A stretch of 22,830 nt of DNA from a virus: the UHGV virus genome UHGV-0089399. One strand, written 5' to 3'. Shown one piece after another: positions 3,945-12,207 of the stretch. The notes beneath the pieces were generated by a model, which did no database searches, was not told the origin of the DNA, and saw only the letters and a program-made list of their open reading frames with translations. The position numbers were made by a program, and so were the translations under genes. How positions within the stretch are numbered: position 1 is the stretch's first letter; each line of letters starts with the position of its first letter.

Positions 3945-6551
3945 TTATTTCCTGCAAACTCCAGATGATGTTAATCCATCAAAAATAACCTGCACTCTGG
4001 CAATAACAACATCAACTCCAGAAGTCGTTTCACTTGCATAACCAAGTTTTATTTTAGATACAATATCCTGAGTAAGTTCAGATATTTCAGTTTCTGCAAT
4101 GTTACCAGAGGCCATGTGATTATCGTATGCCATAGAATGAATTCCATTATTGACATCGATTGAACTAGTATGTTTGTGAAAAATAGATGGGTTTACCTGA
4201 AACGAATTTGAACCGATAAGATCAGAAGATACTCCATTCATCACTGCAGTACAGCGTGGAATATTATTATCGGTTATTGTCATATGCAGACGGTTACCAG
4301 TTAACCCCTCACCAAGTGTGACATAATACGCCAATTCTCCACCTGCATATTGTTTCCCCTCAACAATAACAGTAATCCCTCTTAATTTCTGATTAGCTAG
4401 CAAAAACTTATTACTGTCTATATAGCATTTATTTGCGGAACCAAAAACAGCCCCTTCTAAAATATCTGATGAATAGGAATAAATAAGGTCACCAGAAACA
4501 AAGGAAAGAATATCAGATACGTTTCCTTTTTTAGATAAGTTGGGAGAATAGCTATTAACTATTTCATATTGTCCTGTGATAAAATCAAGGTAAACGCCAT
4601 CAGTTTTCATCTCTTTAAAGAAAATGCTATTAAAGCATCCATCAAGAACCGGTGGATATATTCTAGAGCTTGCATAAGCTGTTGGGTGATTCTTATTATT
4701 ACCACTACCAGGCGAATAAACATCTTCGTTAGTCATTGACTTTTTAAGCTTAACAGGAATCATCGGCTGCATATCAATTTTGCAGTTCCCTGAACCACCG
4801 ATGCGAGGATAAAATAAACCACCAAACCTTACAATATTACTACTGAATAGTATTTCGTTATCGTTAAGTGTTATCTCAACGAAGTTTCCAATAAGTTTAA
4901 ATTCAACTGAAAACAAACCAAGTGGAGCAGATAATTTAACAATATTGCGCATAAAAACACCTACAGTCCCTGTTGATGCAGTATAGTGTGTGGTTTCAAA
5001 GGCAGAGCCTGTATATTTCAAGTTAATGAAATTATTATGGTATGAAGACAATTGGAATTGAATCCCAGAACTAAGGATTTCAATATCTACAAATTGAATC
5101 CTTACGGAGTAAGAATATGATAAATCTTCATATTCATAAGGCAATGTAACATCTTTTGAAATAGTTGCCCTCACATAATTACCAGAAACCACATCAACCC
5201 CATCACGTACTGCATTAAAGTAACGATTAAAATCAATAAGCCCAGCGCCAACATACTGCGCATATGAACGAGTCCATCCTGCCATTGCGTTTCGTCCATT
5301 CTGAGCTTCTAAACTGCTAAATTCAGAGTCACTTGTGGTACTTGATGGGAGGATATTTGTACAAAAAACAATTTCAGGCATTGAAGTAATATCATTCAGT
5401 TCAGCCATCAATTTAAAAAAAGTTTTCTGCGGGAAGTTACCAACATCCCAACCATCTCCGTCATTCATGCCAAAAGCAATAATAACAACATCAGGGTTAA
5501 TATCACGAATGTAATCAATCCAGCGTCTGTTCGTGTCTGAATACCATGGGTACTGTGAGTTATAAGAAGTAATTGCTGGTGTATCTTTTCCAAGGTCATA
5601 GTACCTCATTCCACCAATTGCTCTGTTAAATAAAGTAGAACTTGGGAATTTCTCTTGCAAAACTCTCTTAAGATGAGCGGCAAAAATGCTTGATCGATCC
5701 ACTGTGCTTATATTATATGGGGCACTTAAGCTGTCACCAACTAACACTATTTTTGAGTTAGGCCTTGATAATCTCTCAAGTGTTTTAGATGTGACTAAAC
5801 TGCAGGAATTAATGAACTGAGTACTATTTAGCGTCTGTTCAAGTGTATCACCAAATCTGGTACCAACGTATGATGATCCGTTGACACTTGCTAGCTTAAG
5901 GCATAAATCAGCAGTATCTGTAATTGAAAAAATAGGAACAGGACGTCCTAAACTGTCATACCCCTGAATTGAGTTTGCCCTAGAAGATGCTGATGCCATT
6001 TCGCTTACTATCTCAGGGAAGCGGAGTGTTTTAGATATGTTGCTGTTAATAACTCCTTTGATAGATGAGTCTGTATATTTCTTCGTGGAAGCGTCCTGAG
6101 GAAATAATGGATCATCAAGGTTACGAATACGATTGCCGAGTGCATCGTAGTAAGTGGCACTAAATGATGGTTTACGAAGAGCCAGCCGAGCCATGCTTTT
6201 GACTAACTGGATCAGCATCGTTAGCTTATCAAAAGCATCCTCATGCACTTCCGCAAAGAACTTACCCTGATTGCGCAGATCAGTTTCCTGTGTAACCGGT
6301 AGCTCTCGTGATATAGAAATCTTATAGCCATTGGCCAACGCCTTCGACAATATTACATTTCCACCATTGTATCCTCCGGCCCCGGTAACTATATAATCAG
6401 TATCAAGAGTCAGTACGGTGATATTTTCATGAATATCAACAACCTGCACAATCAAATCAGATTTATTGAAAACCCTAAAGGCATACGGAAACGATGTCGT
6501 AACGCCGTTACCGGTGTATTCGTTGTGGTCAACTTCGGTTGAGACCGTCAT
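3945..6551 (-). CDS. Tail fiber/tailspike with T7 gp17-like N-terminal anchor and SGNH/GDSL hydrolase (esterase-like) domain
   Basis: 868 aa. N-terminus (EYTGNGVTTSFPYAFRVF...LTLDTDYIV) resembles the conserved T7 tail-fiber N-terminal domain. Central GDS block (VLVGDSLSAPY), a conserved Gly block and a GxND block (VVIIAFGMNDG) are typical of SGNH hydrolases. GGAG ribosome-binding site upstream. Confidence 0.8.
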   Translation of the reverse strand: MTVSTEVDHNEYTGNGVTTSFPYAFRVFNKSDLIVQVVDIHENITVLTLDTDYIVTGAGGYNGGNVILSKALANGYKISISRELPVTQETDLRNQGKFFAEVHEDAFDKLTMLIQLVKSMARLALRKPSFSATYYDALGNRIRNLDDPLFPQDASTKKYTDSSIKGVINSNISKTLRFPEIVSEMASASSRANSIQGYDSLGRPVPIFSITDTADLCLKLASVNGSSYVGTRFGDTLEQTLNSTQFINSCSLVTSKTLERLSRPNSKIVLVGDSLSAPYNISTVDRSSIFAAHLKRVLQEKFPSSTLFNRAIGGMRYYDLGKDTPAITSYNSQYPWYSDTNRRWIDYIRDINPDVVIIAFGMNDGDGWDVGNFPQKTFFKLMAELNDITSMPEIVFCTNILPSSTTSDSEFSSLEAQNGRNAMAGWTRSYAQYVGAGLIDFNRYFNAVRDGVDVVSGNYVRATISKDVTLPYEYEDLSYSYSVRIQFVDIEILSSGIQFQLSSYHNNFINLKYTGSAFETTHYTASTGTVGVFMRNIVKLSAPLGLFSVEFKLIGNFVEITLNDNEILFSSNIVRFGGLFYPRIGGSGNCKIDMQPMIPVKLKKSMTNEDVYSPGSGNNKNHPTAYASSRIYPPVLDGCFNSIFFKEMKTDGVYLDFITGQYEIVNSYSPNLSKKGNVSDILSFVSGDLIYSYSSDILEGAVFGSANKCYIDSNKFLLANQKLRGITVIVEGKQYAGGELAYYVTLGEGLTGNRLHMTITDNNIPRCTAVMNGVSSDLIGSNSFQVNPSIFHKHTSSIDVNNGIHSMAYDNHMASGNIAETEISELTQDIVSKIKLGYASETTSGVDVVIARVQVIFDGLTSSGVCRK

Positions 6552-6654: not shown

Positions 6655-6671
6655 ATTACCTTTATGGTAAT
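6655..6671. promoter_or_regulatory. Palindromic operator-like site ATTACC-N5-GGTAAT (copy 1 of 3)
   Basis: Perfect 6-bp inverted arms with a 5-nt spacer, in the divergent region between the tailspike and the plus-strand accessory operon. Confidence 0.4.
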
Positions 6672-6709: not shown

Positions 6710-6725
6710 CTGTATAAATATACAG
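6710..6725. promoter_or_regulatory. LexA (SOS) box, CTGT-N8-ACAG
   Basis: CTGTATAAATATACAG is a near-perfect match to the LexA consensus CTGT(AT)4ACAG. Lies about 20 bp upstream of the 6747 start and overlaps the likely promoter (TTGATA upstream). Confidence 0.6.
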
Positions 6726-6746: not shown

Positions 6747-7004
6747 ATGCAGCGGTATCACTATCCACTGGAAGACGGATTTACCGAAAGGATTCACACG
6801 CCGGGAGGCGTCAGGTCACTGGTGGAGGGATCGCACTTGATGAAATTACTCCGGGATCTCGATAAGGATGGATTTAATGTCGATGGCCCACTTGCCGAAC
6901 TGACTGCACTGATTAACTACGTCACCAGCTCACAGATGTCTATGCGGGATCTGCAAACACATCTCGACTATTGTGCCGAACAATTACGAAAACAAACCAG
7001 ATAA
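6747..7004 (+). CDS. Small protein paralogous to the C-terminal domain of the downstream Bro-N protein
   Basis: GGAG ribosome-binding site 8 nt upstream of the ATG. Residues ERIHTPGGVRSLVEGSHLMKLLRDLDKDGFNVDGPLAELTALINYV...MRDLQTHLDY align with RSLIHSPSGVLGLTENSLLMNLLNQLQEDGHDVSGAAAELTTMFCYI...LRDIQTHAEY of the 7319-8011 product. Confidence 0.55.
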   Translation: MQRYHYPLEDGFTERIHTPGGVRSLVEGSHLMKLLRDLDKDGFNVDGPLAELTALINYVTSSQMSMRDLQTHLDYCAEQLRKQTR

Positions 7005-7066: not shown

Positions 7067-7143
7067 TCTTGTGCCATAGTAATCGGGCACTGGCAAAATC
7101 CGGTGCCGGGATTGGTCTCCCGGATTACTACAGAGGCACATAT

Positions 7144-7164
7144 GCCGCATAAGCGGTTTTTTTT
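7144..7164 (+). terminator. Weak intrinsic terminator/attenuator-like hairpin with U8 tract
   Basis: Short stem CCGC-ataa-GCGG followed by tttttttt, between the small ORF and the Bro-N gene. The stem is short, so function is uncertain. Confidence 0.35.
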
Positions 7165-7318
7165 ATGTGTAAAGCGCACCTATTCTATGGTGGGCTGTGT
7201 GGGGGCACCGAAAGGTGCGCCGGGTTCCTTTGTAGCCGGTAAGACCAACTCTGCACAGTTCACCACCATCTGATTGGTCTCAGCGGTGGTGATTAACCTA
7301 ACTACAAAGGTGATCGCC

Positions 7319-8011
7319 ATGAATACCAAACCTTCCATCTTTTCCTTTGAGTCATCCTGCCAGATCCGTATGTTCATGATTGACGGAGAACCTTGGTTTG
7401 TCACCAAAGATGTGTGCAATGCTTTGAATATTGATGTTACACAAGCGAGAAAACTTGATAAAAAAGGCTGGAACAAAAAGGGGCTGTATTCAATACAGAC
7501 CCCTGGTGGAATACAAGAACTATCCATCGTTTCAGAATCAGGTCTCTACATCCTTATTCTGCGTTGCAAAGAGGCAATGACTGAGGGAACGAGAGCATTC
7601 AGATTTCTTGAATGGGTTACAGGCGAGGTTCTTCCTCAGATCCGCCGCACCGGAAGTTACATTAAAAACTCGCTACCGCAGGAAGAACGCATAAAGATGG
7701 TTGCCGACCAGGTAGCCAACGCCACGGCGTCAGCAGTAATGCAGGCGATGAAGATAGAGAACAAAACCTACAACGCCCCGCTGAAGCCCGGCTACCGCAG
7801 CCTGATTCATTCCCCGTCTGGTGTTCTCGGCCTGACGGAGAACTCACTGCTGATGAATCTGCTGAACCAGTTACAGGAAGACGGGCACGACGTATCGGGC
7901 GCGGCGGCGGAGCTGACCACCATGTTCTGCTACATCGTCGGTGTGAGCAAATGCCTGCGTGATATCCAGACGCACGCGGAGTACATCAACGACAAAGCAG
8001 GGTTCTTCTGA
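7319..8011 (+). CDS. Bro-N domain protein (phage antirepressor-like)
   Basis: N-terminal region (FSFESSCQIRMFMIDGEPWFVTKDVCNALN...ESGLYILILRCKEAMTEGTRAFRFLEWVTGEVLPQIRRTGSY) matches the Bro-N/KilA-N-type domain pattern. AGGTGA ribosome-binding site upstream of the ATG at 7319; the track ORF begins earlier at a non-ATG codon. Confidence 0.8.
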   Translation: MNTKPSIFSFESSCQIRMFMIDGEPWFVTKDVCNALNIDVTQARKLDKKGWNKKGLYSIQTPGGIQELSIVSESGLYILILRCKEAMTEGTRAFRFLEWVTGEVLPQIRRTGSYIKNSLPQEERIKMVADQVANATASAVMQAMKIENKTYNAPLKPGYRSLIHSPSGVLGLTENSLLMNLLNQLQEDGHDVSGAAAELTTMFCYIVGVSKCLRDIQTHAEYINDKAGFF

Positions 8012-8083
8012 CGGGCGGCGGCACAGGGATGTGCCTTTAAATAATTCTGTACAGATTGCAGACTGGGGGTGAATAGCGTACTA

Positions 8084-8098
8084 TTACCTTAAAGGTAA
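8084..8098. promoter_or_regulatory. Palindromic operator-like site TTACC-N5-GGTAA (copy 3 of 3)
   Basis: TTACC (8084-8088) and GGTAA (8094-8098) with a 5-nt spacer, about 45 bp upstream of the 8141 start codon. Same architecture as the sites at 6655-6671 and 7034-7052. Confidence 0.4.
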
Positions 8099-8140
8099 AC
8101 CTGTTTTTATTTTATACCTGTAACTTACCGGAGATTAAAG

Positions 8141-8467
8141 ATGACAAAACTTGGATTCGTGATGAGAGGTCCGGTAAGAAGCGGAACTCATGCAAAGCGT
8201 AGCAAGAGTCGTATTTTTACTGGTAAGGTTGTAGCACGTAAATCAGCTATTGGCTCGTTCAATAGTGAAAATGCGGCATTGCGCCATATTTTTATCAGCA
8301 CAAAGCCAAGAGCATCCGCTGATGTGCATACAATGACTATTCCTATCACAAAGAATATAAAGCGGATAAAAAAGCTCTCATCTGCAGAATCAAAAGAGAT
8401 ATCTTTCCGCCAGCTTAACTCATTAGAAACGCATATGAAGGAAGAGGAATTCGATGTTTTTGAGTGA
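8141..8467 (+). CDS. Hypothetical basic protein (108 aa), first gene of a coupled pair
   Basis: GGAG ribosome-binding site 8 nt upstream. Lys/Arg-rich N-terminus. The 3' end overlaps the next gene by 14 nt. AT-rich relative to flanking DNA. No motif I recognise. Confidence 0.5.
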   Translation: MTKLGFVMRGPVRSGTHAKRSKSRIFTGKVVARKSAIGSFNSENAALRHIFISTKPRASADVHTMTIPITKNIKRIKKLSSAESKEISFRQLNSLETHMKEEEFDVFE

Positions 8468-8966
8468 GTATAGCGGGAAGGTTATACCTACTGGTGAGTT
8501 TAAAACTGATGACTTTCTGATTTCGCTAAAAGATGCTTTTAAACAACACTGGCGTCATGGTCATCATCCTGATCTGGGAAAAGATACTCTTTTTGAAAGA
8601 CCAGACGAAGTATTAGGTTTCCATCTCAGAAAGGTTCATGTCAATATTGGTGAATATGCATCATATTCATACTCATGTACTGAACAGTGTTGGGATGAGT
8701 GGTCATATGGATTGATTGATGAACAAGGAAATTACAGGCCAAAACCAACCAGTAACGCATATCTCATATATGCAGTCAATGAAATAAGAGATGCAGCCTT
8801 ACTAGCTTATTGGGACCCGCCCGCACACACCAAAGCTAACGCAAAAGTTTGGATGGATTCCGTATTGAATTTCACAAAATTATTTCATGAACGAACGAAT
8901 ACAGCTCCACTTAGTAGAAATGTTTATCCGTGGGATTATTCGTACAAATCCAAAAAGCCTGCATAG
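8454..8966 (+). CDS. Hypothetical protein (170 aa), second gene of a coupled pair
   Basis: GAGG ribosome-binding site inside the upstream gene; start overlaps the upstream stop region. Contains a His-rich stretch (WRHGHHPD). No recognisable family. Confidence 0.5.
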   Translation: MFLSEYSGKVIPTGEFKTDDFLISLKDAFKQHWRHGHHPDLGKDTLFERPDEVLGFHLRKVHVNIGEYASYSYSCTEQCWDEWSYGLIDEQGNYRPKPTSNAYLIYAVNEIRDAALLAYWDPPAHTKANAKVWMDSVLNFTKLFHERTNTAPLSRNVYPWDYSYKSKKPA

Positions 8967-9047
8967 TAGTTTTTTATGGACGAAACAAAAGTCAGTGCTA
9001 CACTCATTGACGCCACATTGAGGTGGATTATAGATGGAAATTTCACA

Positions 9048-9209
9048 ATGAAAAAAGCATTTGCTGCACTGTTCGTTTTGTTGTCTCTGGTAGCTTCAAC
9101 TCAGGCCTTTGCCGGTCGTTGTCAGCACGACAGCGATACTGCCGCTGACGGCTCCCGCTGCGGTGGGCGTTCTGCGGATTCCCGCCCGGGCGGCGGTGGC
9201 ATTCGTTAA
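9048..9209 (+). CDS. Small secreted peptide (53 aa precursor) with Sec-type signal peptide
   Basis: MKKAFAALFVLLSLVASTQAFA-GRCQHD... with a predicted AFA-G cleavage site. The mature part is about 31 aa, Gly/Arg/Ser-rich with 2 Cys. The longer track ORF from 8976 lacks a ribosome-binding site and would bury the signal peptide. Confidence 0.4.
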   Translation: MKKAFAALFVLLSLVASTQAFAGRCQHDSDTAADGSRCGGRSADSRPGGGGIR

Positions 9210-9231
9210 AAACAAGGCCGCGAAAGCGGCC
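9207..9231 (-). terminator. Rho-independent terminator of the minus-strand structural operon
   Basis: GC stem GGCCGC-gaaa-GCGGCC (9216-9231), followed on the minus strand by TTGTTTTTA. Lies about 10 nt after the stop of the 9241-9537 gene. Confidence 0.6.
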
Positions 9232-9240
9232 TGTGACATG

Positions 9241-9537
9241 TCACGTCCCTTTTCTGAATGATAGCCATTCGAAAAATGATGACATTCCACCGCAGACAAT
9301 AGCAAAGATGATCCCACCAAAGAAGAGAAGGCCAGCCTGCCACCACTCCCACCGCCATACATCCACAGCGCCAACCATACCAACAATCGCTCCAACAAAT
9401 GGAATATAGCTCACGATGAAAGCAATGGGGGCTGCAATTATCCAGTGCAATCCCCACCATGATTCAAGCCCAGCCATAATTGCTGCCAACTGAAAAAGAC
9501 CAACGACGATATAAACAATGAATCCTATAGCTTGCAT
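9241..9537 (-). CDS. Small integral membrane protein (98 aa, about 3 TM helices)
   Basis: Strongly hydrophobic, Trp-rich sequence. AGGTGA ribosome-binding site 4 nt upstream of the ATG. Positioned after the ejection-protein genes. Confidence 0.6.
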   Translation of the reverse strand: MQAIGFIVYIVVGLFQLAAIMAGLESWWGLHWIIAAPIAFIVSYIPFVGAIVGMVGAVDVWRWEWWQAGLLFFGGIIFAIVCGGMSSFFEWLSFRKGT

Positions 9538-9732: not shown

Positions 9733-12207
9733 TTATTGCGGAGTGACATCCTGAGGTCGCCACCAGTATGTCTGGTTAAACTCTTTCTTCGAACGTTGCT
9801 CCATTTTACGCAAATAGCCTAGTGAAAAATACTCCTGCATCTGATTAAAGATCATGTGATCGAGAGCCGCCTTCAAGTACCAGAGATTCGCACCTGGCAT
9901 CAAACCTTTCCCCAGCTTCACCAGATCACCACCAGTCTGCTCACTCTTCCCTTCCACAGCATTTAACGGTATGCCCTGAGCAATCTTCACTACGTCATCA
10001 ACCAGACCAGCTACCGGGCCAAGCATCGACGCCAGCGCGCCGCTTCCGTACCTAGTGTGATCTGACAATAAAAAGTCACCATAAAGGCCAAGACCACCAC
10101 CTTTCAGTAGAGCACCAAGCCAGAATTTTGCGGCATCTTCTCCTGTCATCTCTCGAGGATTACGACCAGACGCAAGGTCGTTAAGTTGTTGCGACAAAGC
10201 GCCAAGAATGGTCGTACTGGCAATAAACGTCGCAATATATGCCGCACGCCCACCAGCAGACGGCATACCCATAGCGCGTGACCAGTGACGCATAACAACC
10301 GAGATAGGGAACGATTTAAACAGGAAAACACTTCTCGTTAATTCACCTTTCCATGTTCCACGCTGAATACCAGAACCGGTTATCAGTTGCTCACGTGCTC
10401 CCGGTGTAATAACAGCCATATCAACTTCTTCAGTTACGGCACCGAGCAGTTTACGCATTGCCTCAAATTTCACGCGTTCAGGCTCACCAAGATGTTTAAC
10501 TGCTGAATCAGGGATACGCATAATGCTTTCCGGTGTCAGCATCGTATTATTACCGTTCCCCCAGTCCTCCTGTTGCGCCAGCTTCCATACGCTCCAGTCT
10601 GTGTCAGTAATCCCTTTGCTTTTCAGGATACGAAAATCAGAGTCATCGAGGCTACGAAGGTCTGGTGTTCGTGACACTACTTCTCCCAGGCTTCCCATCA
10701 TGGTTACGCCATAGGCGCGCTTGTGCGCATCTGACCATGCTGTAAGCCCACTGGCACGCATTACCGCCGTTGCCGCCCAACGAGACACTGACGGCCCCAT
10801 ATTATCCATCGCCCAGCGGTTAACGCTGCCAAGTAGAGATTCCATCGCCAGACCAGCGCGGCGCGCCCGCGCAAGTTCTGTACGGTTCGTTGGGTCCATA
10901 GCTTCAAGCTGGTTGCGGAATAACTGGTTCATTGGAAGGTTGGTAACCTTCGCAGACAGATACATGGTTCCAAGATCAGAGAACGATGACAGCAACGCGG
11001 ATCCGAGTCTGCTGGCAACCAGCCAGTTGCGGATATTGTCAGACCATCGCGCGATGTGCGGATTCGCTACAGGCTGTGTCTTTCCGGAAATAAAGTTGTA
11101 CAGATTCTCTGTGTTGTTCGCTAGCCGCTCGACTTTACCGGTTTTACTCGGGTTAGCGGTTGCCGTTTCTGCCTTCACCTGATCAAGAAGAGAGCGGAAA
11201 ACATGATCGGGGTTTGGGCCATATGTTTCCACCAGTGCAATATCTTTACTGATACCTTCCAGGTGACCGACCATGATTTCCCATAGAGAGCGATCGCCAT
11301 AAAGTTGCTGATATTGCAGATAGGAATCTGCATCTTTGAAATGTATCTGTCGTGATGCATTACCACGGTTAGCACGTGCGCCGGAAATTCGCATTCCGGT
11401 ATCAGTAAGCTTATTCAGCCCACCAGTAGCGATCGTGTTATAAGCCTCTCCAAGAAATGCAGACAACTCGGCATCGTTCATCAGTTGTCCATCGGCTCGG
11501 ATATAATATTTGCGATCCAGCTTACCTATAACATCGCTAACCCACTTATCCTTTGATACCGCCCCAACCTTTTCCATAGAATGATGTTGAGGGATCCCCC
11601 AGTTTTCGAGATAGCCAATGTCCCCACCAGCATCATTAAACCGGCGGCGCAGCAGCTCTGTAACTTCTCTCCACGCCTTAGCACCTTTTCTTGCTTTAGC
11701 ATTGCCAGTATTTTGCCCCCGCATTTCATATACCAAGTCACGTACGCCCGCTTCATCTTCAAACAGACCAAAAAAGCGAGGATCAACTGCTTCGAATGCC
11801 TCCTGCAATTGACTCAATGCATAATCACGGGTGGCTTTTGTTCTGGATTCAACAGAGAGGAAATTAGATTTACCGTCTGCATTAAAAGCTATAGTACGGT
11901 TAAGAGCGCCAAGTTTCCCATCAGCCCCTTGATAGCTATTGATAAATTTATCCAATCTCTGACGCGCGGCTATAGTGAGAGCCACACGACGTTTCTTTAA
12001 TGCCGCTTCTCGCTGTAATTCTTCAGATGCCAATTGTGCTGCTCGATATAGCCGCTCTGATTCGGAAAGTTGTCGCCACGACATCGGGTCATCACGAGCA
12101 ATGGAGCGCATATTTCGATAAATGCGGTCTTCAATGTTCTGTATTTCTCGCGCCGTTAACGTGCGCTGCGCCGCCTGCTGGACCGCTTGTATACATTCCT
12201 GTCTCAT
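9733..12207 (-). CDS. Internal virion/ejection protein, gp16-like C-terminal part
   Basis: 824 aa. C-terminal region (FLFKSFPISVVMRHWSRAM...AAYIATFIASTTILGA) resembles the T7 gp16 C-terminal hydrophobic segment as recalled. GAGG ribosome-binding site upstream. Follows the 600-aa gene after a 5-nt gap. Confidence 0.65.
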   Translation of the reverse strand: MRQECIQAVQQAAQRTLTAREIQNIEDRIYRNMRSIARDDPMSWRQLSESERLYRAAQLASEELQREAALKKRRVALTIAARQRLDKFINSYQGADGKLGALNRTIAFNADGKSNFLSVESRTKATRDYALSQLQEAFEAVDPRFFGLFEDEAGVRDLVYEMRGQNTGNAKARKGAKAWREVTELLRRRFNDAGGDIGYLENWGIPQHHSMEKVGAVSKDKWVSDVIGKLDRKYYIRADGQLMNDAELSAFLGEAYNTIATGGLNKLTDTGMRISGARANRGNASRQIHFKDADSYLQYQQLYGDRSLWEIMVGHLEGISKDIALVETYGPNPDHVFRSLLDQVKAETATANPSKTGKVERLANNTENLYNFISGKTQPVANPHIARWSDNIRNWLVASRLGSALLSSFSDLGTMYLSAKVTNLPMNQLFRNQLEAMDPTNRTELARARRAGLAMESLLGSVNRWAMDNMGPSVSRWAATAVMRASGLTAWSDAHKRAYGVTMMGSLGEVVSRTPDLRSLDDSDFRILKSKGITDTDWSVWKLAQQEDWGNGNNTMLTPESIMRIPDSAVKHLGEPERVKFEAMRKLLGAVTEEVDMAVITPGAREQLITGSGIQRGTWKGELTRSVFLFKSFPISVVMRHWSRAMGMPSAGGRAAYIATFIASTTILGALSQQLNDLASGRNPREMTGEDAAKFWLGALLKGGGLGLYGDFLLSDHTRYGSGALASMLGPVAGLVDDVVKIAQGIPLNAVEGKSEQTGGDLVKLGKGLMPGANLWYLKAALDHMIFNQMQEYFSLGYLRKMEQRSKKEFNQTYWWRPQDVTPQ

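Follow-up and report, generated by a model that had tools for sequence, protein, structure and literature searches.

Among the closest known relatives of the gene pair considered here are YafN and YafO of Escherichia coli K-12, an antitoxin and a toxin encoded in that order within the dinB-yafNOP operon. Antitoxin-then-toxin order is listed for the YafO family as a whole (PF_YafO), whose documented activity is mRNA cleavage, whereas the order of higBA is reversed, with the toxin first (table in PMC11980606); the ribosome dependence of cleavage is debated even for K-12 YafO (PMC8546651). A probable addition to this lineage occupies positions 8084–8966 of UHGV virus genome UHGV-0089399, a stretch of 22,830 nucleotides called the window below, where two overlapping open reading frames (ORFs) are read as a type II toxin-antitoxin (TA) cassette, with ORF1 as candidate antitoxin and ORF2 as YafO-like toxin.

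The likeness to the K-12 system extends to gene order, to matches of ORF2 (borderline) and YafO to one Pfam family (Pfam accession: PF13957) with collinear motifs, and, more weakly, to the C-terminal ends of ORF1 and YafN. The differences are considerable: YafO has 132 residues and ORF2 170, with an insert of ~30 residues (a W..W helix) and a C-terminal extension; ORF1 is basic, and no Phd/YefM domain was found in it; and control appears to lie with a phage operator, no LexA box having been noted between the stop codon of the preceding Bro-N antirepressor gene and the ORF1 start codon (8012–8140). Vibrio cholerae HigB2 (PDB accessions: 5mje, 8a0x) and other RelE/HigB/YafQ toxins are only 11–14% identical to ORF2 in sequence, and the helix-turn-helix domain of HigA2 has no counterpart found in ORF1.

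Further parallels are found in two sister phages, TL-2011b (gp45/gp44) and EC.W1-9 (WYA78249/WYA78250), with toxins about 33–34% and 47% identical to ORF2, respectively. In both, the toxin gene overlaps an upstream partner with a related C-terminal tail; the partners have bodies (59 and 139 aa) unrelated to that of ORF1, and the overlaps measure 26 and 11 nt against 14. The TL-2011b pair occupies the same genomic slot as the cassette, with the same promoter and operator ahead, whereas the EC.W1-9 pair is found at another site of the island, flanked by the Bro-N gene and an 85-aa gene, with an operator copy of its own ahead (locus L011, 1916–1930). The wider setting recalls morons and immI regions (P22 immI; P1/P7 c4-icd-ant), the cassette being a low-GC insert that has a promoter and a terminator of its own, transcribed against the flanking structural genes and neighbouring a C4 antisense RNA/Bro-N antirepressor unit. 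In contrast to classical morons, the cassette promoter carries the global operator of the phage, and expression may therefore not be constitutive in the lysogen.

The gene pair and the YafO family

ORF1 and ORF2 are both real genes, since the RefSeq coordinates of both are those called here, the pair is kept in other genera together with its 14-nt overlap (ATGTTTTTGAGTGA), and synonymous changes are found within conserved codons of the ORF1 family. An earlier reading made from the DNA letters (the sequence-only reading) had described an overlapping two-gene cassette with two ribosome-binding sites in a low-GC island of the plus strand, and this agrees with the coordinates, the GGAG and GAGG motifs (Table 1) and the GC content, which is 0.38–0.40 over 8100–9000 versus 0.48–0.55 in the flanks. 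Its placement of the pair between the ejection-protein genes and the tailspike, opposite in strand to the structural genes, likewise agrees with the gene map: the flanking genes, encoding a tail fibre/tailspike (3945–6551) and large virion proteins (from 9733–12207 onward), are on the minus strand.

Assignment of ORF2 to the YafO family draws on annotation, profile searches and a structural model. RefSeq labels its product ‘type II toxin-antitoxin system YafO family toxin’, and the Pfam YafO_toxin model matches it at a borderline 19.7 bits (E=9.5e-4) over model positions 7–100 of 101 (94 positions); near relatives fall on both sides of the 25-bit cut-off, with 25.1 bits for P0009 (76% identical to ORF2), 28.1 for P0028 and 16–24 for other members of the clade, against 135 for K-12 YafO. 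PF13957 is matched by 31 of the 46 relatives retrieved with an ORF2 profile, the best at 6.8e-23. The family is small: when 1.84 billion representatives were searched exhaustively with a profile, just 54 clusters came up at E<=1e-3. Alignment of the ORF2 clade with K-12 YafO (hhalign) is collinear across 111 columns (P=0.0075), the common motifs being F-x2-[YW]-[KR]-x-G-x2-P-x2-[FL]-G-[KR]-D, H-[VI]-H, [TS]-[SN]-[ND]..L.Y and P-x-H; F29, G42, H62 and H125 (ORF2 numbering) are invariant family-wide and G36, D44, P50, W80, S100 and Y106 nearly so. An AlphaFold2 model built from the 46-sequence alignment adopts a HigB/RelE (BECR) fold with a mean predicted local distance difference test score (pLDDT) of 94.4 and a predicted template modelling score of 0.89, replacing an earlier model from a shallow 10-sequence alignment (pLDDT 39). 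Searches of PDB sequences with ORF1 and ORF2 returned noise only, an NCBIfam scan of both gave no match, and an alignment-based scan of genome contigs gave no confirmed relative.

From its sequence and predicted structure, ORF2 is thus placed as a RelE/HigB-fold protein at the fringe of the YafO family, on a marginal and divergent branch, and by analogy with that family would be toxic and cleave mRNA. The sequence-only reading had recognised neither protein, which still applies to ORF1, featuring no annotation, and no longer to ORF2, given its RefSeq label, Pfam match and fold. The His-rich stretch HWRHGHHPD of ORF2 was considered as a metal site and rejected: only G36, H38-P39 and G42-K43-D44 are shared beyond the nearest relatives, and the corresponding part of YafO lacks His. 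The stretch is treated instead as the version of the family motif G-x-x-P-x2-G-[KR]-D that this clade appears to carry.

ORF1 and its C-terminal tail

ORF1 has an isoelectric point (pI) of 10.6, with 21 K+R against 10 D+E residues, and an acidic end, the last 33 residues having a pI of 5.0. No match was found in Pfam, NCBIfam, PADLOC or PDB, no Phd/YefM domain was detected in ORF1 or its relatives by Pfam or NCBIfam, and all 25 database clusters of the family are labelled ‘hypothetical’. Homologues of 100–120 aa occur in Citrobacter, Serratia, Klebsiella, Enterobacter and Yersinia, and at every locus inspected, across several prophage backbones, a 170-aa ORF2 homologue comes next, overlapping the ORF1 homologue by the same 14 nt. 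The pair is a conserved and mobile unit carried in an accessory slot, and with ORF2 placed in the YafO/RelE-fold lineage and ORF1 behaving like its cognate antitoxin, the earlier proposal of a TA module is supported. Rfam identified no RNA family inside the cassette and Tandem Repeats Finder no tandem repeats; nothing therefore points to an RNA antitoxin of type I or type III.

Divergence is faster in ORF1 (40–57% identity) than in ORF2 (70–79%) and is unevenly distributed: the first 25 residues, conserved and K/R-rich, are 52–76% identical, the last 31 residues 55–84% and the middle 16–41%. Beyond this family, sister toxin clades 42–50% identical to ORF2, and the more distant TL-2011b toxin, are preceded by partners of other types (B, B', C and D; Table 1). 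Pfam detected no domain in any partner type, A (the ORF1 family) included, with a sub-threshold RHH_8 match in one type C protein only, and BLASTP of ORF1 against YafN and against gp45 found nothing.

A short C-terminal motif links these otherwise unrelated bodies. Types A, B and C end in a gapless, stop-anchored tail, x-[IM]-[ST]-x6-[LI]-S-x2-[ML]-x7-[ML]-x4-[FY]-D-x2-E, and when 3425 ORFs were scanned with a hidden Markov model (HMM) of the B and C tails, the best matches outside the training set were type A partners (E=0.002). Comparison of family A with B (P=0.0016) and with C (P=0.004) by hhalign placed both matches at the extreme C-termini, and under C-anchored gapless scoring the A–B and A–C scores were not reached by any background tail (1085 scored) or any column shuffle (2000 scored). 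The same scoring applied to the K-12 YafN tail found one background tail in 1085 and one shuffle in 2000 as high; the YafN terminus (...MTDDDFNDFKE) resembles that of ORF1 (...MKEEEFDVFE), with an hhalign match that is weak and covers the last 28 residues only (P=0.067).

The tail co-varies with the toxin, the rest of the partner protein not doing so: between L037 and L038 the toxins are 78% identical, the tails 87% and the bodies 29%, and between L041 and L042 the figures are 75%, 94% and 36%. Such conservation and co-variation is the signature expected of a modular antitoxin with a toxin-recognising C-terminal segment, which presumably binds and neutralises the toxin. ORF1 is most likely the cognate antitoxin of ORF2, because it is always paired with ORF2, shares the stop-anchored tail motif with the sister partners, and has a tail that co-varies with the toxin. 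In Klebsiella pneumoniae, the ORF1 homologues P0093, P0095 and P0096 are truncated or frameshifted, with loss of the conserved C-terminal tail.

Operator, boundaries and competing readings

The sequence-only reading had noted an operator-like palindrome upstream of the pair, and the palindrome is real (8084–8098) but is not a feature of the cassette. Each of the three transcription units of the plus-strand island has one copy of its pattern, TTACC-N5-GGTAA, ahead of it (6656, 7036 and 8084); chance would give 0.58 copies over the full window when up to 2 mismatches are allowed. Of the 45 loci examined, 43 have the pattern, and in TL-2011b and phiv142-3 it stands ahead of other cargo. The complete phiv142-3 genome (L045) has 15 copies at up to 1 mismatch versus 0.54 expected, all intergenic but one (1787, inside Orf4): the repressor gene Orf43 has two copies on either flank, the early-left and replication promoters lie between paired copies spaced 62 bp apart, and further sites precede the terminase and integrase genes. 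An inverted-repeat finder at default length misses this palindrome with its 7-bp arms; palindromes were counted by script, giving 14 in the window versus 5.4 ± 2.7 in mononucleotide shuffles. The 15-bp palindrome stands at almost all promoter regions of this phage group. It is probably the global repressor site of the phage and the operator of the Uetakevirus repressor, and would bind the CI-like repressor of the prophage, placing cassette transcription under phage control. The position of the putative promoter is kept in relatives, within backbone sequence common to phages with other cargo, and its -10 hexamer abuts the operator with the same geometry as the early promoters of phiv142-3. If anything, the phage-wide nature of the operator suggests a cassette silenced in the lysogen and not one active there as immunity cargo.

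The cassette lies between this fixed promoter/operator and a terminator. Homology to TL-2011b and phiv142-3, which have other cargo, ends at ~8100, just past the operator, and returns where the terminator hairpin stands; in this slot phiv142-3 has small, unrelated ORFs, TL-2011b another YafO-like pair and EC.W1-9 a non-YafO pair. Given this architecture, the region is interpreted as a swappable cargo (‘moron’) cassette of ~870 bp, featuring its own promoter and terminator, atypical GC content, and presence or absence between otherwise homologous phages. The hairpin that closes the slot is GCCCGCATAGCGGGCTTTTTT in relatives and has decayed to GCCTGCATAGTAGTTTTTT in the window, and transcription may therefore run through into the small gene downstream. 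At the other end, the hairpin GGCACA-GGGA-TGTGCC (8017–8040), 3' of the Bro-N stop codon, with a stem kept in Citrobacter relatives as GGCGC...GCGCC, is probably a terminator dividing the antirepressor unit from the cassette.

The sequence-only reading had likened the position to the cargo site of P22-like phages. The window flanks match the Uetakevirus phages phiv142-3, TL-2011b, ZX5 and phiV10, which integrate at the 3' end of guaA (PMC9782041), and in strain PCN033 the cassette lies inside a prophage adjoining yfgI (yfgI/guaA); by these matches the prophage is epsilon15/phiV10-like and not P22-like. Of 5426 complete E. coli genomes, 69 carry the 883-bp stretch at 99% identity or more, every time in the chromosome. 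The same cassette is also present in the immI region of a P22-like prophage of Citrobacter (L006), beside genes for Arc, P22_AR_N and Tail_spike_N. In some prophages the identical type A cassette is accompanied by a second one, of type C, ~1.2–2 kb upstream (L018, 2–959; L022, 9–~960; minus strand), with a toxin 98% identical to that of EC.W1-9 (whose pair spans 2092–3007 of L011); the window itself has one YafO-like cassette only.

Table 1. Features of the cassette and its control region in the window, and partner types found upstream of YafO-like toxins
Feature	Position	Strand	Description
ORF1	8141-8467	+	108 aa, basic; RefSeq WP_000163644 ‘hypothetical protein’; phrog_5933; proposed antitoxin
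ORF2	8454-8966	+	170 aa; RefSeq WP_000479990; phrog_1651; predicted divergent YafO-family toxin with HigB/RelE (BECR) fold
Shine-Dalgarno of ORF1, GGAG	8130-8133	+	7 nt 5' of ORF1 ATG; kept in the alignment of relatives
Shine-Dalgarno of ORF2, GAGG	8444-8447	+	within the end of ORF1, 6 nt 5' of ORF2 ATG; translational coupling
ORF1 C-terminal tail KLSSAESKEISFRQLNSLETHMKEEEFDVFE (residues 78-108)	8372-8464	+	proposed toxin-neutralising segment; motif common to types B and C, weakly to YafN
Operator palindrome TTACCTTAAAGGTAA	8084-8098	.	copy of phage-wide TTACC-N5-GGTAA; centre 50 bp before ORF1 ATG
Operator copy 2 TTACCTTTGAGGTAA	7036-7050	.	abuts promoter-like site ahead of IsrK/C4 leader and Bro-N antirepressor gene
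Operator copy 3 TTACCTTTATGGTAA (1 mismatch)	6656-6670	.	ahead of LexA box and 85-aa ORF
Putative sigma-70 promoter	8056-8084	+	-35 TTGCAG 8056-8061, 17-nt spacer, -10 TACTAT 8079-8084; read from sequence
Right cassette boundary, degenerate terminator-hairpin remnant	8953-8975	+	overlaps last ORF2 codons; GCCCGC-ATA-GCGGGC-T6 in relatives
Partner type A			ORF1 family, 100-120 aa; upstream of ORF2-type toxin
Partner type B			113-115 aa; body unrelated to ORF1
Partner type B'			150-175 aa; body unrelated to ORF1
Partner type C			139-171 aa, including phage EC.W1-9; body unrelated to ORF1
Partner type D			TL-2011b gp45, 59 aa; body unrelated to ORF1

A type II TA cassette, with YafO-like ORF2 as toxin, ORF1 as antitoxin and expression controlled by the phage operator, is the probable explanation. 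It builds on the observed gene pair and its conservation, on the family and fold of the toxin, on the tail motif and its co-variation, on the distribution of the operator and on the cassette boundaries. Transcription would start at the weak sigma-70 promoter, a fixed part of the phage backbone, and as its -10 hexamer abuts the phage-wide operator, expression would most likely follow the repressor state of the prophage, tracking its CI-like repressor and not autoregulation by the antitoxin. translational coupling would let ORF1 be produced earlier and in larger amount than ORF2; ORF2, judged from its family, would cleave mRNA and arrest translation; and the conserved acidic-aromatic C-terminal ~31 residues of ORF1 would wrap onto ORF2 and neutralise it, the basic N-terminal part being in this scheme a swappable module without a recognisable DNA-binding domain.

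Several results weigh against this explanation. The Pfam score of ORF2 falls under the curated gathering cut-off of 25 bits for PF13957, BLASTP of ORF2 against K-12 YafO is not significant, and Foldseek of the ORF2 model against the PDB is weak (best E=0.21). ORF1 is strongly basic, with no known antitoxin or DNA-binding domain found; its own tail in the window matches the B and C tail HMM at E=4.9 only; and the hhalign probabilities of the tail comparisons are low, because the motif is short. The cassette promoter is weak, below the calling level of a consensus scan, and PADLOC-DB v2, which has no model for either cassette protein, gave no match at E<=1 for either ORF or for any of four neighbouring ORFs.

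Three of the competing readings differ in what the module would do and when. A classical TA module of prophage defence or superinfection exclusion, constitutive in the lysogen, with degradation of the antitoxin on infection freeing the toxin for abortive infection, is unlikely yet deserves consideration, in view of the accessory slot between structural genes and beside immI-type antirepressor control elements, the occupation of that slot by another YafO-like cassette in TL-2011b, the presence in EC.W1-9 and some prophages of a second, different YafO-like cassette at another site of the island, which resembles diversifying accessory cargo, and the discussion of RelE-superfamily toxins as defence toxins (PMC11980606). 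The blank PADLOC scan speaks against it, as does a cassette promoter under an operator also found on the early, replication and packaging promoters of the phage, which argues for silencing in the lysogen; the anti-phage or abortive-infection role suggested by the sequence-only reading is left without support from the defence-system HMMs. The opposite scenario, in which antitoxins are defined by the tail alone, the swapped N-terminal bodies (A, B, B', C and D) serve in trigger sensing or stability, and the master repressor of the phage restricts the toxin to derepression or infection, as a lytic-phase host shut-off or inter-phage weapon and not as lysogen defence, is speculative and distinctly doubtful as a whole. 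Improbable, too, is an arrangement with no need of neutralisation, in which ORF1 is a basic nucleic-acid-binding accessory protein and ORF2 a RelE-fold protein for lytic growth (for example, in host mRNA shut-off): the pI of ORF1, its K/R-rich N-terminus, the want of an antitoxin domain and an operator pattern suggestive of expression on derepression would suit it, but the tail is conserved, stop-anchored and varies together with the toxin even where bodies are exchanged, the location of ORF1 upstream of ORF2 and their overlap fit the antitoxin-then-toxin order of the YafO family (PMC11980606), and the tail resembles the YafN C-terminus.

The remaining alternative concerns the palindrome at 8084–8098, which could be the autoregulatory operator of the cassette itself, bound by ORF1 or an ORF1–ORF2 complex. 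It is suitably placed, over the likely transcription start ~50 bp before ORF1, and a TTACC half-site recurs just 5' of the ORF1 ribosome-binding site. Classical autoregulation by ORF1 is nevertheless unlikely because the operator is phage-wide, and this alternative is very improbable: the same operator stands ahead of unrelated cargo in TL-2011b and in phiv142-3, where the slot has no ORF1 homologue, it is repeated across the phiv142-3 genome and at two other promoters in the window, and no DNA-binding domain was found in ORF1.

With the toxin already catalogued, the main value of the TA reading is corrective, in that an ‘unknown’ pair becomes a YafO-type toxin-antitoxin module and its ‘operator’ is returned to the phage. 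The antitoxin family, the tail rule and the phage-level wiring are absent from current annotation, and a literature search on WP_000479990 and WP_000163644 found no paper on either protein. Probable antitoxins include ORF1 and three or more further protein types without annotation; all they have in common is a tail of ~31 residues co-varying with the toxin, and this rule may offer a simple way to find the cognate antitoxins of divergent YafO-like toxins, now labelled ‘hypothetical’ in databases. The cassettes plug into a fixed promoter/operator–terminator socket of epsilon15-like and related podoviruses, a clear example of cargo exchange; the operator map suggests a module wired to the phage repressor and, if confirmed, bears on whether prophage TA modules act in the lysogen or in lytic growth.

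Neighbouring genes and control elements

Upstream of the cassette, the leader of the Bro-N antirepressor gene (ATG at 7319) contains Rfam matches on the plus strand between 7074 and 7270 to IsrK (7087–7163, 73.7 bits), C4 antisense RNA (7183–7270, 78.6 bits) and the a1/b1 C4 target element (7074–7126); from these matches, 7074–7270 is assigned as a P1/P7-type immI c4-ant control unit inside an epsilon15-like prophage. The 85-aa ORF on the plus strand (6747–7004; phrog_450) shares homology with the C-terminal region of the Bro-N antirepressor and is preceded, ~20 bp upstream, by CTGTATAAATATACAG at 6710–6725, which fits the LexA-box pattern CTGT-N8-ACAG. By analogy with Gifsy phages or Tum of phage 186, it may be a small antirepressor under SOS control.

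Downstream, a 53-aa protein encoded on the plus strand (9048–9209; phrog_14503 ‘membrane associated protein’) features a hydrophobic, signal-peptide-like N-terminus and a Gly/Arg-rich tail, and a 98-aa hydrophobic protein encoded on the minus strand (9241–9537; phrog_3075) has a weak holin-family match, the two genes converging on a bidirectional terminator at 9215–9232. The tail fibre/tailspike encoded at 3945–6551 (868 aa) combines a conserved N-terminal adaptor with a GDSL lipase/esterase domain (residues ~268–447); the same position in PCN033 is taken by a different receptor-binding module, belonging to glycosyl hydrolase family 28.

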